Notes under the pieces: generated by a model
What the model was told of the DNA's origin: nothing
Databases searched by the model: none
The model's input: the letters and a program-made list of their open reading frames with translations, nothing else
Program-made: the position numbers and the translations under genes
Source: an uncultured virus (IMG/VR IMGVR_UViG_3300043411_001904)
Lineage: Duplodnaviria; Heunggongvirae; Uroviricota; Caudoviricetes
Virus record (IMG/VR): IMGVR_UViG_3300043411_001904
DNA length: 64,000 nucleotides
Strand: one strand, 5' to 3'
In this document: positions 5,067 to 23,929 of the stretch, in pieces
How the letters are laid out: each line of letters opens with the position of its first letter
How positions within the stretch are numbered: the stretch's first letter is position 1

Positions 5067-6716
5067 TTAAAATCCTTCCTTCAAAGAAACAGATCTATTA
5101 AAGGATAGACCATCTTTATCAAGTGCGTAATATCCTTTTCTCATCATTTGAACACCCTCACCAACTTTTATATCCAAAATGGATGGTTCAAAAAAACCAT
5201 CTCGAACAACTAAAGATTCCTTATTCAGGTGATCCAAAAAGTCTTTATCACCACCATCAGGATTTGGATGATCAAAAAGAACATCATAGTCATTAACACT
5301 TCTCTTAACAGCAGAAGGCTCATAAACCCAATGTATAGTACCTTTAACCTTTCTATCAACCAATTCCCCAGATTTTGTTTCAGGATCATAATCACAGATA
5401 ACTTCGGTAATTTTTCCATCAACCTCAATACAATCCACAGCCTTAACAATATAGGCGCCCTTTAGTCTAACCTCACCACCAAGCTTAAGTCTGTGATACT
5501 TTGAGTTAGCCTCTTTTCTAAAATCTTCCGATTCAATCCAAAGAGAATTTCCAAATGGAATAAGCCTAGACCCCATATTTGGATCTTCAGGATTATTTTC
5601 CACACTAACCATTTCCACACCACCAACCCAATTGCGAATAGTCAATTTAATTGGATCCATAACACCCATAATTCTTTTCGATTTCTTATTCAAATCTTCT
5701 CTCAAACATTCTTCTAATAAAAGGTGACTAATCAAAGATTCTCTCTTAGTGACACCAACTTTATCGCAAAAATTTCTTATAGATTCAGGTGTATATCCTC
5801 TTCTTCTAAGTCCAGATAAAGTAGGAAGTCTTGGATCATCCCAACCATCAACAATTCCCTCATCAGATAGTGTTTTAATTTTTCTCTTACTCATAATAGA
5901 ATAGTCTAGATTCAATCGAGCAAATTCTGTTTCTTCAGGCAAATTTCCTGAGAGATCACAATTCATCAAAACCCACATATAAAGTGGTCTATGAACTTCA
6001 AATTCAAGAGTACAAAGAGAATCTGTAATTTCTTCAAAGTAGTCACACAATGGATGTGCAAAATCATACATTGGATAGATTTTCCACTCAGTTCCCGTCC
6101 TGTGATGTGGACTATCAATTATTCTATATATGACAGGATCTCTCATGATCATATTAGGATGAGACATATCAATTTTAGCTCTGATTGTCATAGACCCTTC
6201 AGAAAACTCTCCCATCTTCATTCTCTCAATAAGATCTGAATTTAATTCAGGATCCATATTTCTATATGGTGAGTTGACACCGGGTGATGTTGTAGTTCCT
6301 TTCATCAAAGCAATTTCTTCAGAAGAAGAAAGATCAACATATACCAACCCCTTTTTAGCCAAAACCATTAGCTTCTCATAAATAAAATCAAAATAATCTG
6401 ATGTATATGTAATTCTGCTTGGCCTAAATCCCAACCACTCTATATCCTTTAACATAGACTCCACATACTCCGATTCCTCAGTGGATGGATTAGTATCATC
6501 AAATCTAAGTATACATGGAGCACCATACTTTTCAGCTAGTCCAAAATTTAAACACATAGCCTTAGCATGACCAAGATGAAGACCTGAATTATATTTTACA
6601 GTCTCCATCCCATCAATTATAGACACAACCTTTGTGCCATTAGGCTCTGGTGGAAATCTTAGCTTTAGCTTATCAAGATTTCCCTTCTTTACTATCTTTT
6701 CCTCTATGAAGTTCAT
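5067..6716 (-). CDS. glnS: Glutaminyl-tRNA synthetase
   Basis: RFPPEPNG, HLGH (HIGH), RFDDTNP, YPMYDFAH, CTLEF, MSKR, GWDDPRLPT, GEVRL, KGTIHWV. Confidence 0.95.
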   Translation of the reverse strand: MNFIEEKIVKKGNLDKLKLRFPPEPNGTKVVSIIDGMETVKYNSGLHLGHAKAMCLNFGLAEKYGAPCILRFDDTNPSTEESEYVESMLKDIEWLGFRPSRITYTSDYFDFIYEKLMVLAKKGLVYVDLSSSEEIALMKGTTTSPGVNSPYRNMDPELNSDLIERMKMGEFSEGSMTIRAKIDMSHPNMIMRDPVIYRIIDSPHHRTGTEWKIYPMYDFAHPLCDYFEEITDSLCTLEFEVHRPLYMWVLMNCDLSGNLPEETEFARLNLDYSIMSKRKIKTLSDEGIVDGWDDPRLPTLSGLRRRGYTPESIRNFCDKVGVTKRESLISHLLLEECLREDLNKKSKRIMGVMDPIKLTIRNWVGGVEMVSVENNPEDPNMGSRLIPFGNSLWIESEDFRKEANSKYHRLKLGGEVRLKGAYIVKAVDCIEVDGKITEVICDYDPETKSGELVDRKVKGTIHWVYEPSAVKRSVNDYDVLFDHPNPDGGDKDFLDHLNKESLVVRDGFFEPSILDIKVGEGVQMMRKGYYALDKDGLSFNRSVSLKEGF

Positions 6717-7915: not shown

Positions 7916-7921
7916 ATTTTG

Positions 7922-8005
7922 CTACGGAAGTAGGACTCGAACCTACACAGGACTTTCGTCCAACTGGGGCCAAAACCCAGCGCCATGCCATTAGGCGATT
8001 CCGCA
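7922..8005 (-). tRNA. tRNA-Gln(UUG) with long variable arm
   Basis: CTGGG-TTTTGGC-CCCAG anticodon arm; variable arm GGAC-GAAA-GTCC; T arm GTAGG-TTCGAGT-CCTAC. Confidence 0.85.
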
Positions 8006-9309: not shown

Positions 9310-10185
9310 TTATGATAATATATTCTTTTTATGGACATTTACTCTTCCAGATACCCAACCCATTATTAAATATCTATTCAAATCATTTTTTTTAATTTTT
9401 ATATTTTTTCCTTCTCTATTTATCCATAAAGTTCCGTGTTGAGAATTTTTTTCTCCCCTTTGATTAATAGAATTTTTTTCTCCTATTTTCTTTTTACTGT
9501 CCTCACTATGTCTACGACCTTTCCAAATTGGAAATATTGAACCATCCACAAATCTAGGATCATCTCTATGGGCTAAAAAATAATCACCACTCATATTGCT
9601 ACTCAGTATCATATTCTTATTTAACCCACTGTGAATATCAACGTTAAACTTATCTCTTTCTATAAATTCATTTTTTCCTAATATATTGTTTCTGACACAC
9701 ATTTTTAATTTAATCAACGAGGTTAGTGATTTATTATATCTTTCATCATCAACTGGTATATAAAAAAAATTTCCAAACTCATCACACGCGGTCACATTTC
9801 CCTTTGTGATCCCAACTAATTCCCCAGAAGATATTCTTGGATCACTAACATTAACATCAAATGTATTACCATCAACATCTCTAACTGTCGCAAGATCTTT
9901 TGTTATGAATCCACCACCAATAATAATATTATAAACATCACCTCTTTTCAAAAATGAATCATTAACTAATTCAGACTCCTTTTTAATCATATCACTTTCG
10001 TTATCAAATTGATATAAAATTACCTTCTCAAAATTGGAAATTCCATATTCAGAAATTGCTTTTGTGATTTTCCTACCAGACCCCATATAACCATCATTTA
10101 TATTACGTGTTATATGAACACCAATGTAAATCATTTTATTGATTTTATTGGTTATTTGATACACTAGATATTTTCTATCTCTCAT
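9310..10185 (-). CDS. GIY-YIG (Seg-like) homing endonuclease
   Basis: VYQITNKINKMIYIGVH, YMGSG, NUMOD3-like WKGRRHSEDSKKKIG; start moved to MRDRKY because the upstream part overlaps a tRNA. Confidence 0.85.
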   Translation of the reverse strand: MRDRKYLVYQITNKINKMIYIGVHITRNINDGYMGSGRKITKAISEYGISNFEKVILYQFDNESDMIKKESELVNDSFLKRGDVYNIIIGGGFITKDLATVRDVDGNTFDVNVSDPRISSGELVGITKGNVTACDEFGNFFYIPVDDERYNKSLTSLIKLKMCVRNNILGKNEFIERDKFNVDIHSGLNKNMILSSNMSGDYFLAHRDDPRFVDGSIFPIWKGRRHSEDSKKKIGEKNSINQRGEKNSQHGTLWINREGKNIKIKKNDLNRYLIMGWVSGRVNVHKKNILS

Positions 10186-10305: not shown

Positions 10306-10315
10306 AATATTTCGG

Positions 10316-10407
10316 TCGGGACGAGAGGAATCGAACCTCTGAGGGGATTTTGTATTCCCACCCCATTCCAAGTGGGGGCCGCTACCTGACTACGGGCCTA
10401 CGTCCCG
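10316..10407 (-). tRNA. tRNA-Pro(UGG) with long variable arm
   Basis: CGGGACG/CGTCCCG acceptor, A73; CCCCA-CTTGGAA-TGGGG; variable arm GGGA-ATACAAAA-TCCC; AGAGG-TTCGATT-CCTCT. Confidence 0.8.
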
Positions 10408-16937: not shown

Positions 16938-17008
16938 AGCGGGATAACGGTACTCCCCCGTTTTATATAGCTTGGAAGGCTACCACATTAGTTTTATGCT
17001 AATCCCGC
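16938..17008 (-). tRNA. tRNA-Gly(UCC), divergent D/T loops
   Basis: GCGGGAT/ATCCCGC acceptor, U73; GTAGC-CTTCCAA-GCTAT. Confidence 0.7.
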
Positions 17009-19462: not shown

Positions 19463-20281
19463 TTACAAAAGATTAATATCGATACCATGTGTATCATACC
19501 ACCACTCAGGTGATTTGCCCAAGTGCTTATTTTTTAACTTATTATATCTCTCAAGTATCTTACTTTGTCTTTTTACTTCATCATGATAAAATTCGTGATC
19601 AACAATAATATCATTCTTAAAGCACTCTCGAAGCAATTTTCTTAAAATATATCCATGTTTCAAGTTACCCGGAACAAACCCGGATTGTATTATTTTCAAA
19701 ACAGAATCTCTAAGAATATCCTCTTTGGTTCTAACTATCCCATGAAACATTTCTAACCTTTCAAGACCAAATCCAACATCAATTGATTGACCTAGCGGAT
19801 TAACAATATTCCCAATTTCAATACCATTCTTATAGAACTCAGTGCAATATCCACCAATATCACCATCCGACCAAATACACTCAGGATCCAATCTAACATC
19901 ACAATTTGGATAAAGATCAATCCAATCTTTTTTATCAGGATGAATAGTAAAATAATCAGGAATAACATCAATTGATTTCAAAAAATCCAACCAAAAATCC
20001 ACAGTCCACTGAATACTTTTCTCCTTGAAAGAAAAAAGACCCATCATATTGAAGTATAAGAAATGTGTTCCATCACCAATTTGATCAAAATCATTTAATC
20101 GAAGACATGGCTGAATATTTCCAATAGTTGATTCATCCGGATTCTTGAATTTTGATTTAAACTGCTGCATCCCAGCAGGACAAAAAAGGGTCGTATCATC
20201 ATACGACCCAATAGATAGGTTTTCCTGAAATGGTATTCCATTCAAGACGCAAAATTCTTTATATTTTTGAGATATATTCAT
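19463..20281 (-). CDS. Alanyl-tRNA synthetase N-terminal catalytic domain only (272 aa)
   Basis: DDTTLFCPAGMQQFK, QPCLR, GDGTH..F.MMG.FSF, GYCTEF, EIGNIV, IDVGFGLERL, GYILRKLLR. Confidence 0.85.
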   Translation of the reverse strand: MNISQKYKEFCVLNGIPFQENLSIGSYDDTTLFCPAGMQQFKSKFKNPDESTIGNIQPCLRLNDFDQIGDGTHFLYFNMMGLFSFKEKSIQWTVDFWLDFLKSIDVIPDYFTIHPDKKDWIDLYPNCDVRLDPECIWSDGDIGGYCTEFYKNGIEIGNIVNPLGQSIDVGFGLERLEMFHGIVRTKEDILRDSVLKIIQSGFVPGNLKHGYILRKLLRECFKNDIIVDHEFYHDEVKRQSKILERYNKLKNKHLGKSPEWWYDTHGIDINLL

Positions 20282-22085: not shown

Positions 22086-23105
22086 CTAGAATTCTGATCC
22101 GTACTTTTCATACATTTTTATCCATTTCCTAACACAAGAATCAGATACTTCATATTTTCTTCCTGTTCCTCTATATCCATATATTTTAATATCTTCCAAT
22201 AAAGTATTTAGATCAGGTCTGCTAACTCTTCTTTGAGATAAGCTGTATTGATATGTCTTCTTTGTTATAGAGTGTTGAAACGGCTCATATTCTATATTCA
22301 ATTTTAACTTTCTATTCGATTTTTTTTCGCTGGAAGGCCTTTTTGTCCGTCCCCGTTTTTTTATAAATATTTCTGATTTAGATATTTTTTTATATCGATG
22401 GTAAGAATATACTCCAAATTTTGGATCTCCTGTATTCAGAAAAGATCTAAGTATTTCGATACAATCATCCATTTCAAATTGAATTTTGGAAGCTGAAAAT
22501 CTCAAAACTACCCATCCATTCGAAATCAATAAATCATCTTTCTTTTTATCAGATTCAATCCTATCCAAATTAGAATGTTGAGATCCATCAATTTCCACAG
22601 CAATTTTATTTAATTCAAAAGAGAAATCTATAAAATATGGGAAAAACGACCTTTCTCGAACTATCAAATATTTCTTATCCCAACCAATATCTATTATTTT
22701 AGACAGAAAAATCTTCTCTGGATAGGAAATATTGGATTGTCTCCAAGCTGTCTTTTCAGGATTTTCTTTCATAAACTTTAATCTTCGATCTCGAATTTTT
22801 TGTTTAGTTTCTTCACTGTGAAAAAATTTAAACTTAGTTCTACCCAATTTTACGGCCTCAGAAAAAGATCTTTTAATTCCAGCATTATTTAATATCCTAT
22901 TCAAAATATGTTTAGACCTCAAACCATACTTAGTATATATTTCAGTAAAATTACTTCCTAGTCTATATTCAGTTATTATTGAATTTATAATTTCTTTAGT
23001 CAAAACACAAGACTTCTCATGTCCTCTCAAAGACCCCACATTCCCAAAACTCAATTCGCATTTTTTACATATCATATGATATATATTAAGAGTTTGATCT
23101 CTCAT
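22086..23105 (-). CDS. DUF559/Vsr-like endonuclease (homing-endonuclease-like) with C-terminal HTH
   Basis: SYPEK, YFIDF, IAVEIDGSQH, SDKKKDDLL..GWVVLRF; HSEETKQKI; start may be 23075. Confidence 0.75.
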   Translation of the reverse strand: MRDQTLNIYHMICKKCELSFGNVGSLRGHEKSCVLTKEIINSIITEYRLGSNFTEIYTKYGLRSKHILNRILNNAGIKRSFSEAVKLGRTKFKFFHSEETKQKIRDRRLKFMKENPEKTAWRQSNISYPEKIFLSKIIDIGWDKKYLIVRERSFFPYFIDFSFELNKIAVEIDGSQHSNLDRIESDKKKDDLLISNGWVVLRFSASKIQFEMDDCIEILRSFLNTGDPKFGVYSYHRYKKISKSEIFIKKRGRTKRPSSEKKSNRKLKLNIEYEPFQHSITKKTYQYSLSQRRVSRPDLNTLLEDIKIYGYRGTGRKYEVSDSCVRKWIKMYEKYGSEF

Positions 23106-23114
23106 TCAAAATTG

Positions 23115-23188
23115 TAGCCCTGAGCGGTGACGATCCGCCTTTTTTGCCTTGAAAGGGCAACGTCCTAACCAGCGTAGACGACAGGGCC
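23115..23188 (-). tRNA. tRNA-Glu(UUC)
   Basis: TTGCC-CTTTCAA-GGCAA; GGCCCTG/CAGGGCT. Confidence 0.85.
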
Positions 23189-23207
23189 ATAATAATACTA
23201 ATAATTG

Positions 23208-23279
23208 TGCAGTAGACCGGATTCGAACCGACACCCTGAGCTTGGAAGGCTCTCATGCTACCATTAACACCACTTCTGC
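23208..23279 (-). tRNA. tRNA-Gly(UCC)
   Basis: GAGC-CTTCCAA-GCTC; GTCGG-TTCGAAT-CCGGT. Confidence 0.85.
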
Positions 23280-23410: not shown

Positions 23411-23490
23411 TTGGCGAGGTGGGATTTGAACCCACGTTTTCAACAACCACTACAGTTCTAGTGTTTATAAGACACCGCTGGTACACGCCA
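23411..23490 (-). tRNA. tRNA-Ile(UAU)-like lacking a canonical D arm
   Basis: TGGCGTG/CTCGCCA; GGTGT-CTTATAA-ACACT; GTGGG-TTCAAAT-CCCAC; 7 nt between acceptor and anticodon stems; 24-nt variable region. Confidence 0.7.
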
Positions 23491-23495
23491 ATATG

Positions 23496-23590
23496 TTGGG
23501 GGAGTGAGACTCGAACTCACCTACTGGAAAGGCCAATACATCAATTTGATAACCCAGGACAGTTTTACAGACTGTTGATGTTATCCCCCA
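23496..23590 (-). tRNA. tRNA-Tyr(GUA)-like lacking a canonical D arm
   Basis: TGGGGGA/TCCCCCA, A73; ACAGT-CTGTAAA-ACTGT; GTGAG-TTCGAGT-CTCAC; very long variable region. Confidence 0.7.
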
Positions 23591-23830: not shown

Positions 23831-23848
23831 TTTATTTTTATTCTTTTG

Positions 23849-23929
23849 TAGCGGGGGGAGGATTTGAACCTCCGTCTTTCATTTCTCGAGTTTATGAGAC
23901 TCGCGACCTTACCACTAGTCCACCCCGCA
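23849..23929 (-). tRNA. tRNA-Met(CAU), possibly initiator
   Basis: CGAGT-CTCATAA-ACTCG; 1:72 mismatch (U/U); GGAGG-TTCAAAT-CCTCC. Confidence 0.8.

Follow-up and report, generated by a model that had tools for sequence, protein, structure and literature searches.

The stretch analyzed here (the window, 64,000 nucleotides from an uncultured virus of the Caudoviricetes) comes, judged by its genes, from a megaphage: the DnaB helicase encoded here shows 73% and 71% identity to two uncultured phages of 635 to 642 kb, and the window also encodes GreA, a family B polymerase, a ribonucleotide reductase, a full GlnRS (5067-6716, minus strand), and an AlaRS fragment, a short open reading frame (ORF) at 19463-20260 (minus strand) that matches only the N-terminal part of PF01411. 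ARAGORN called 12 tRNA genes in the window, all on the minus strand, including canonical tRNA-Gly(UCC) at 23207-23279 and tRNA-Glu(UUC) at 23114-23188, both of which were also found with Rfam. In the same cluster lie two adjacent minus-strand genes that neither ARAGORN nor a whole-window Rfam scan at the gathering threshold called: a tRNA-Tyr(GUA) gene (23590-23496) and a tRNA-Ile(UAU) gene (23490-23411). Both end in a discriminator A (at 23496 and 23411, respectively), and in neither is CCA encoded. The first-pass annotation had described two neighboring tRNA genes with clean acceptor, anticodon, and T arms, only 7 to 8 nt in place of the D arm, and oversized variable regions, and each part of that description was borne out. 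A search with model R1 found no third gene of this kind in the window. A canonical Tyr or Ile gene may be present elsewhere in this phage, outside the window.

In the Tyr gene, the acceptor stem (7/7), anticodon stem (5/5), and T stem (5/5) are fully paired, and the anticodon arm occupies 23575-23559, with GUA at 23568-23566. The acceptor and anticodon stems are separated by 8 nt, and the variable region is 38 nt long. The strand that follows U8-A9 (23581-23576) is the equivalent of the 3′ strand of the D stem (about positions 22 to 26), and it pairs with 23543-23538, the displaced 5′ strand of that stem. The displaced D loop follows this strand (the whole segment being 23543-23533) with A14 and with G18G19 at 23534-23533, although the numbering is by analogy and a GG was required by the search pattern. 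A variable-arm stem is formed between 23557-23554 and 23527-23524; it and the displaced D stem cross, which makes this a pseudoknot. These two helices correspond to the complementarities ACATCA/TGATGT and CTGG/CCAG remarked on in the first-pass annotation, and both are kept by compensation in homologues.

The Ile gene has a 7-nt linker and a 24-nt variable region, with 6/7 acceptor pairs (one U-U), 5/5 anticodon stem pairs (one G-U), and 5/5 T stem pairs. Its anticodon arm lies at 23476-23460 (UAU at 23469-23467). The equivalent of the D-stem 3′ strand (positions 23 to 25; 23480-23478) pairs with 23455-23453, the displaced 5′ strand, from which the displaced D loop runs on to 23446; A14 is at 23451, G15 at 23450, G18G19 at 23448-23447, and U20 at 23446, and G15 matches C48 at 23436. 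The pairing proposed earlier for this gene, ACCA with TGGT, is present in the sequence, but its covariation (0.088 versus 0.085 in shuffled alignments, reached in 214/500 shuffles) is that of chance. This register was replaced by CAG/CTG, and the GG of TGGT is part of the displaced D loop. In a permissive local scan with Rfam, the Ile gene scored 33.2 bits in an alignment that passed over the D arm, and the Tyr gene had no tRNA match. The tRNA-like domain of a transfer-messenger RNA was also considered and rejected, as the match was confined to 17 nt of the T arm and reached 9.7 bits versus the 47 needed, and ARAGORN reported none.

Other unusual elements were recorded in the window. Between the Ile and Gly genes (about 23405-23283, minus strand) lies a structured element of about 120 nt with a long closing stem (−31.6 kcal/mol); it had no Rfam match, is nearly identical in the relative L690, and has a diverged counterpart at the corresponding position in the relative L725. 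A DUF559 nuclease-like ORF (22086-23105, minus strand) immediately follows tRNA-Glu and, together with GIY-YIG ORFs at 9310, 49519, and 60358, probably represents mobile endonucleases. Long variable regions, unusual for their isotypes, are seen in tRNA-Met(CAU) (23848-23929), tRNA-Gly(CCC) (10314-10407), and tRNA-Gln(UUG) (7921-8005), all on the minus strand, and the phage crAss001 likewise has a tRNA-Met with a long variable region. A tRNA-Gly-like gene with an irregular T loop (16938-17008, minus strand) scores 40.4 bits in Rfam and is missed by ARAGORN. Two similar tRNA-like elements (about 17140-17065 and 20495-20425, minus strand) combine a T arm with an anticodon-like hairpin and have no pairing acceptor stem.

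Exact-sequence scans with the window Tyr gene gave no matches. A blastn search placed it in crAss001 and relatives and matched the Ile gene to LR756502. In crAss001 and cr112_1, the rewired Tyr gene is unannotated and flanked by tRNA-Lys and tRNA-Phe, in arrays of 22 to 24 tRNAs that otherwise lack a tRNA-Tyr. Homologues were then collected by pattern scans in which the disputed pairs were left wholly or partly free. Rewired genes made up 61/120, 7/120, 72/72, 101/118, 81/120, and 112/120 of the loci listed. The totals are lower bounds: at least 117 distinct Tyr genes, at least 83 Arg genes, and at least 120 Ile/CAU genes (at least 86 Ile-UAU, 29 Ile-GAU, and 5 CAU), the last set after removal of 10/180 parsed rows that were mis-parsed canonical tRNAs or did not match. 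Among the matches listed, only Tyr, Ile/CAU, and Arg anticodons were represented. The UAU anticodon is not particular to this fold, because crAss001 has a canonical Ile(UAU) and rewired genes with GAU and CAU also occur. The Tyr-Ile tandem seen in the window was present at no fewer than four metagenome loci, and one array (L513, G032) holds three rewired Tyr genes and one canonical Tyr gene. Further cultured carriers are Kehishuvirus tikkala and Vibrio phage D260; in the latter, a rewired tRNA-Arg(ACG) is present at L644:2996-3075, again unannotated, and the fold is therefore not limited to phages of Bacteroidota.

The Tyr pattern matched only four times in 185,579 prokaryote genomes. The two intact matches are one identical gene on contigs of metagenome-assembled genomes (MAGs) with tRNA arrays, and the neighbors are phage-like on the one contig of the two that was examined; of the remaining matches, one lacks the 5′ part and one is a chance match. 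In the phylum of a Bacteroidetes MAG, the Ile pattern matched 24/401 genomes versus about 36 control matches, and none parsed as rewired. Going by these scans, the rewired genes are confined almost wholly to phages.

The evidence for the fold is comparative, in that single-sequence folding alone misses it and gives other structures (z of −1.1 to −2.2). For Ile, 40 genes of equal linker and spacer length, chosen from 56 in whose alignment longer Arg linkers had been shifted, were aligned with MAFFT. The CAG/CTG helix was 92.5% paired, with a covariation of 0.633 versus 0.165 in shuffled alignments (0/500), and RNAalifold recovered it unaided. Across all non-Tyr rewired genes listed, pair 11:24 was present in 126/127 and pair 10:25 in 114/127; in the Arg genes, 11:24 was formed in 83/83 with four pair types. 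For Tyr, an alignment of 40 of the 43 genes then known showed the displaced stem paired in 93.8% of cells (covariation of 0.379 versus 0.149 shuffled, 0/500; slid controls, 18 to 59%) and the variable stem paired in 99.4% (0/500 shuffles, far above slid controls). When the set had grown to 117 genes, five pairs of the displaced stem were each found in 117/117, and the three pairs left free by the pattern were formed in 351/351 cells versus 266 when shuffled. A sixth Tyr pair was present in only 61/117 and was taken as a junction pair; an additional 26:45 pair in Ile, paired in 19/40, was not adopted. Kinship of sequences can by itself beat shuffles, which is offset in part by the slid controls and by nearest-neighbor contrasts: 92 such contrasts among Tyr genes contained 39 double changes and 26 single changes in which pairing was kept, with 0 broken pairs. 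The close relative L690 shows compensated changes versus the window in the displaced Tyr stem.

These data indicated, with near certainty on the strength of covariation, that the D arm is strand swapped in these genes, in strong support of the earlier idea that the D pairing had shifted to the 3′ side of the anticodon arm. The compensatory changes whose absence would have told against that idea are present. The order in canonical numbering is acceptor, U8-A9, 22-26, anticodon arm, 10-13, D loop 14-20, 46-48, and T arm. The D arm is rethreaded rather than lost: there is no D hairpin between the acceptor and anticodon arm, the block of positions 10 to 20 has moved 3′ of the anticodon arm, and it still pairs, forming a helix of 3 bp beyond the anticodon stem in Ile and Arg and of 5 to 6 bp in Tyr. 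The name D-armless, under which the genes had first been described, does not fit, as the stem, A14, R15, and G18G19 are all there in a new order.

The displaced loop, moreover, behaves as a D loop in the alignments. G15 was found in 48/48 genes recovered with only C48 fixed by the pattern, and 11/12 incidental genes have A15-U48 or G15-C48. Among the Arg genes, for which position 15 was restricted by the pattern only to a purine, the 15:48 pair was A-U in 78, G-C in 4, and A-C in 1, so that 82/83 were matched. The displaced GG was invariant in the 40 Ile genes, most of them from a pattern that did not fix it, though the parser required one. In the Tyr members, the search patterns prescribed both GG and the T loop, and 15:48 does not covary; hence, the Tyr elbow is less well supported.

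We then compared synthetase identity marks. An A follows the displaced GG in 83/83 Arg genes versus 1/43 Ile genes in which this base was unconstrained. This mirrors canonical phage tRNAs, where A20 occurs in 86/88 Arg genes versus 1/57 Ile genes, and A20 is reported as the main determinant for ArgRS (PMC9976931). The discriminator is A73 in 116/117 Tyr and 120/120 Ile/CAU genes and is mixed in Arg (G in 37, A in 31, U in 14, and C in 1), which is within the identity rules. The same paper gives G1-C72 as a mark of bacterial TyrRS (PMC9976931); in rewired Tyr genes, pair 1:72 is mixed (G-C in 82, C-G in 24, and U-A in 7 of 117), the window gene has U1-A72, and canonical phage Tyr genes have U1-A72 in 10/17. 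As read from these alignments, the identity marks follow the anticodon in the rewired genes.

The makeup of the tRNA arrays also bears on use. We surveyed 38 regions of 17.5 to 20 kb each around rewired Tyr genes, of which 26 held tRNAs for at least 12 amino acid types; the arrays are related to one another. A canonical Tyr gene was present in 6 of these 26 large arrays, versus 14 to 26 of 26 for every other amino acid, and in five crAss-like arrays canonical and rewired genes alternate in the two Ile slots. Replacement of canonical Tyr is not strict, because the two coexist in 8/38 regions and because both L690 and L725, the two relatives whose flanks were read, carry a canonical Tyr in the same cluster as the rewired one. 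In whole records, a canonical Tyr was found by pattern in about 9/39 (12 matches, of which 3 were judged to be chance). A Tyr/Trp-type synthetase (PF00579) is encoded in 8/38 records and 2/14 near-complete ones and is absent from the crAss001 record; an Ile/Leu/Met/Val-type synthetase (PF00133) is encoded in 1/36 records and 1/17 near-complete ones. With so few carriers encoding their own synthetase, charging, if it occurs, would mostly rely on the host, and a dedicated phage synthetase is not needed by the data. In contigs from 4 of 24 listed RNA runs, the Tyr homologue of crAss001 was covered in two and not in two, and no CCA-type loose end was seen.

Upstream of the cluster, the window contains a 30-codon leader ORF (23794-23702, minus strand), followed by a terminator-like hairpin with a T run (23683-23649, minus strand; −24.1 kcal/mol) between the leader and the tRNA genes; the hairpin had been listed on the plus strand, and its minus-strand form with the T run was read from the sequence. 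The 3′ end of the leader (23722-23716) can pair with the 5′ arm of the terminator (23676-23670), giving an alternative antiterminator of −19.7 kcal/mol that is also possible in L690 and L725. Thirteen of the 29 codons after the start specify Tyr, Ile, Gly, or Glu, the amino acids of the four downstream tRNAs. In a set of 15 leaders, 83 residues matched the first four tRNAs versus 43 after permutation (0/5000). Codon content was compared over 56 leaders before phage tRNA clusters. Tyr codons numbered 45/370 before clusters in which the rewired gene is the only Tyr versus 32/833 before Tyr-free clusters, and Ile codons numbered 60/420 before rewired-only clusters versus 60/959 before Ile-free clusters; Arg codons were not enriched in Arg leaders (3/88). 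Four of 14 Tyr leaders are near identical, and because leaders and arrays are related, P values are overstated. The leader had been said to use ATA twice, as a hint of function. Both codons are there; as a sign of function they carry nothing, since two are expected by chance (ATA at 42.5 per 1,000 codons in 44 window ORFs; P of at least 2 in 29, 0.35).

Attenuators of the trp and his type combine a short leader, in which cognate codons abound, with alternative hairpins and a T-run terminator. The window element resembles them, as judged by sequence and folding only, in its codon-rich leader and its overlapping antiterminator and terminator; it differs in that a phage tRNA cluster would be controlled, not biosynthetic genes. 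The leader of the rewired cluster is thus a probable attenuator, and since such leaders are rich in matching codons, the phages appear to regulate the rewired genes as Tyr and Ile tRNAs. A second leader with a terminator (8210 to about 8090, minus strand), with 5 Gln in 19 codons, shows the same attenuator-like design; three tRNA-Gln genes follow it immediately, and GlnRS lies downstream. Attenuator-like leaders recur before phage tRNA clusters, and our literature search found no paper on them.

Set against the canonical cloverleaf (RF00005; class I for Ile, class II for Tyr), the rewired genes keep the 7/5 acceptor-T branch, the 5-bp anticodon stem with its 7-nt loop, U8-A9, the T loop, the discriminator, and the variable stem in Tyr; A14 and G18G19 are present at displaced positions, and the 15:48 pair covaries in Ile and Arg but not in Tyr. 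They differ in having no D hairpin and a changed strand order (22-26, anticodon arm, 10-20, T arm), and the Tyr form differs further in being a pseudoknot. With D-armless mitochondrial tRNAs (type III, mt-tRNA-Ser(AGY)), they share a short acceptor-anticodon connector that touches the variable region (PMC7609411). They differ from these in having lost nothing (the D-stem equivalent covaries, A14, R15, and G18G19 are kept, and the T loop is intact), in their unshortened length of 80 to 95 nt, and in being phage genes for bacterial machinery; an organellar origin is at odds with a megaphage window and homologues in named phages. The engineered mini HisT, D-armless and active in Escherichia coli, is likewise a non-cloverleaf adaptor in bacterial translation, but it is described as an artificial 62-nt deletion construct, modeled in a Y shape and broken down when pnp is intact (PMC11551756), whereas the rewired genes occur naturally and their products are predicted to rebuild the core. 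Allo-tRNAs and the 8/4 and 9/3 tRNAs of bacteria and phages are also nonstandard tRNAs in phage arrays; as that report describes them, the acceptor/T split is altered and the D hairpin kept (PMC5389517), the reverse of what we found, as the split is 7/5 in aligned rewired members (the parser sought only 7/5). Nor is the layout that of permuted or split genes, as the acceptor strands stand at both ends in normal order. The rewired tRNAs, which we take to work like tRNA, therefore lie outside the cloverleaf, mitochondrial D-armless, allo-tRNA, and permuted classes. A full-text search of openly available literature, main texts only, found no description of this fold.

What the rewired RNAs do was weighed against several readings. 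Decay into pseudogenes, as might be suspected from the ARAGORN misses of both genes and the U-U in the Ile acceptor, is refuted by covariation and is left with a negligible probability: over 300 distinct homologues show compensation in every helix, and no pair was broken in the neighbor contrasts. It is highly improbable, too, that the RNA of a rearranged gene is cut and religated into a tRNA of canonical or D-armless form. Other lineages do have permuted and split tRNA genes, and intron-bearing genes offer a similar precedent; nonetheless, the move of an internal block is not reversible by a single circular permutation, the pairing of the displaced strand with the linker follows the order of the gene itself, and a conserved splice-like motif was not seen in the Ile and Tyr alignments. 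In all, it is very likely from the identity marks and array composition that these RNAs are used as charged tRNAs in some form.

Two further readings differ on how, or whether, they serve the ribosome. TRNA-shaped decoys, unused in translation, could bind or soak up anticodon nucleases or tRNA-sensing defense proteins, in line with the coexistence with canonical Tyr in close relatives and some surveyed regions and with the narrow range of anticodons among the matches listed; we consider this unlikely, since a decoy need not keep synthetase marks such as an A20 limited to Arg members and anticodon-matched discriminators, and since the slot exchange with canonical Ile and the many near-complete arrays without another Tyr speak against it. 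Slightly less likely still are charged but open D-armless molecules similar to mt-tRNA-Ser(AGY), in which the helix does no more than extend the anticodon stem and no elbow is formed by the GG. Such a form agrees with the lack of 15:48 covariation in Tyr, with the mitochondrial type III connector, which contacts both the variable region and the T loop (PMC7609411), and with the acceptance of even a D-armless, Y-shaped tRNA by E. coli (PMC11551756). It is at odds with the 15:48 covariation of the Ile and Arg members, with A20 right after the displaced GG, and with the invariance of that GG in the 40 Ile genes, most of them from the pattern that left it free. Charged tRNAs of L-shaped form with a strand-swapped core are accordingly the reading we regard as likely on present alignments.

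In the L-shaped reading, the contacts of the normal core would be kept. The core of tRNA-Phe is held by the contacts 8-14-21, 9-12-23, 10-25-45, and 13-22-46. Each of the three connections that the new strand order creates in the backbone (9 to 22, 44/45 to 10, and 20 to 46-48) would link neighbors in such a core, from which we infer that the L shape and the D/T elbow would be rebuilt. Host RNase P, CCA enzyme, TyrRS and IleRS, EF-Tu, and the ribosome would then accept the rewired tRNAs. A ribosome stalled on the Tyr, Ile, Gly, or Glu codons of the leader would free the antiterminator, and the cluster would be transcribed when the corresponding charged tRNAs run short. Most likely, then, the rewired tRNAs would be host-charged, L-shaped molecules that back up depleted host tRNAs.

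As to why the topology changed, phage tRNAs are reported to counter tRNA-cutting defenses, including retron-Eco7, which targets tRNA-Tyr (PMC11555353), PARIS (PMC12409363), and P2-OLD (PMC12445682). The rewired genes have in common with these a phage-supplied tRNA, Tyr among the known targets, and a probable purpose; the cases as presented in those reports are extra copies of, or point changes in, a cloverleaf rather than a new topology. Selection of the new topology for escape from such host defenses is the step of which we are least sure, and we put it at a little under an even chance. More tentative again is the full picture, in which a second natural adaptor architecture, strand swapped and partly pseudoknotted, would serve at least Tyr, Ile, and Arg in many phage lineages, including crAss001, and would be charged by the host, switched by attenuators, and nuclease resistant by topology.

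According to a 2024 paper, all known bacterial tRNAs are cloverleaves, and those missing an arm are restricted to mitochondria (PMC11551756); the rewired phage tRNAs would be natural counterexamples. If so, the strand order in the tRNA core can be changed with its contacts kept. Since the annotation of cultured phages misses these genes, as with the missing tRNA-Tyr of crAss001, tRNA inventories and the codon-supply arguments built on them are incomplete. With the rewired tRNAs, one could test directly which features of the core are recognized by nucleases, synthetases, RNase P, and the ribosome, and their presence in cultured phages makes them experimentally accessible at low cost. They may represent a new counterdefense of phages and could provide new scaffolds for engineered tRNAs.
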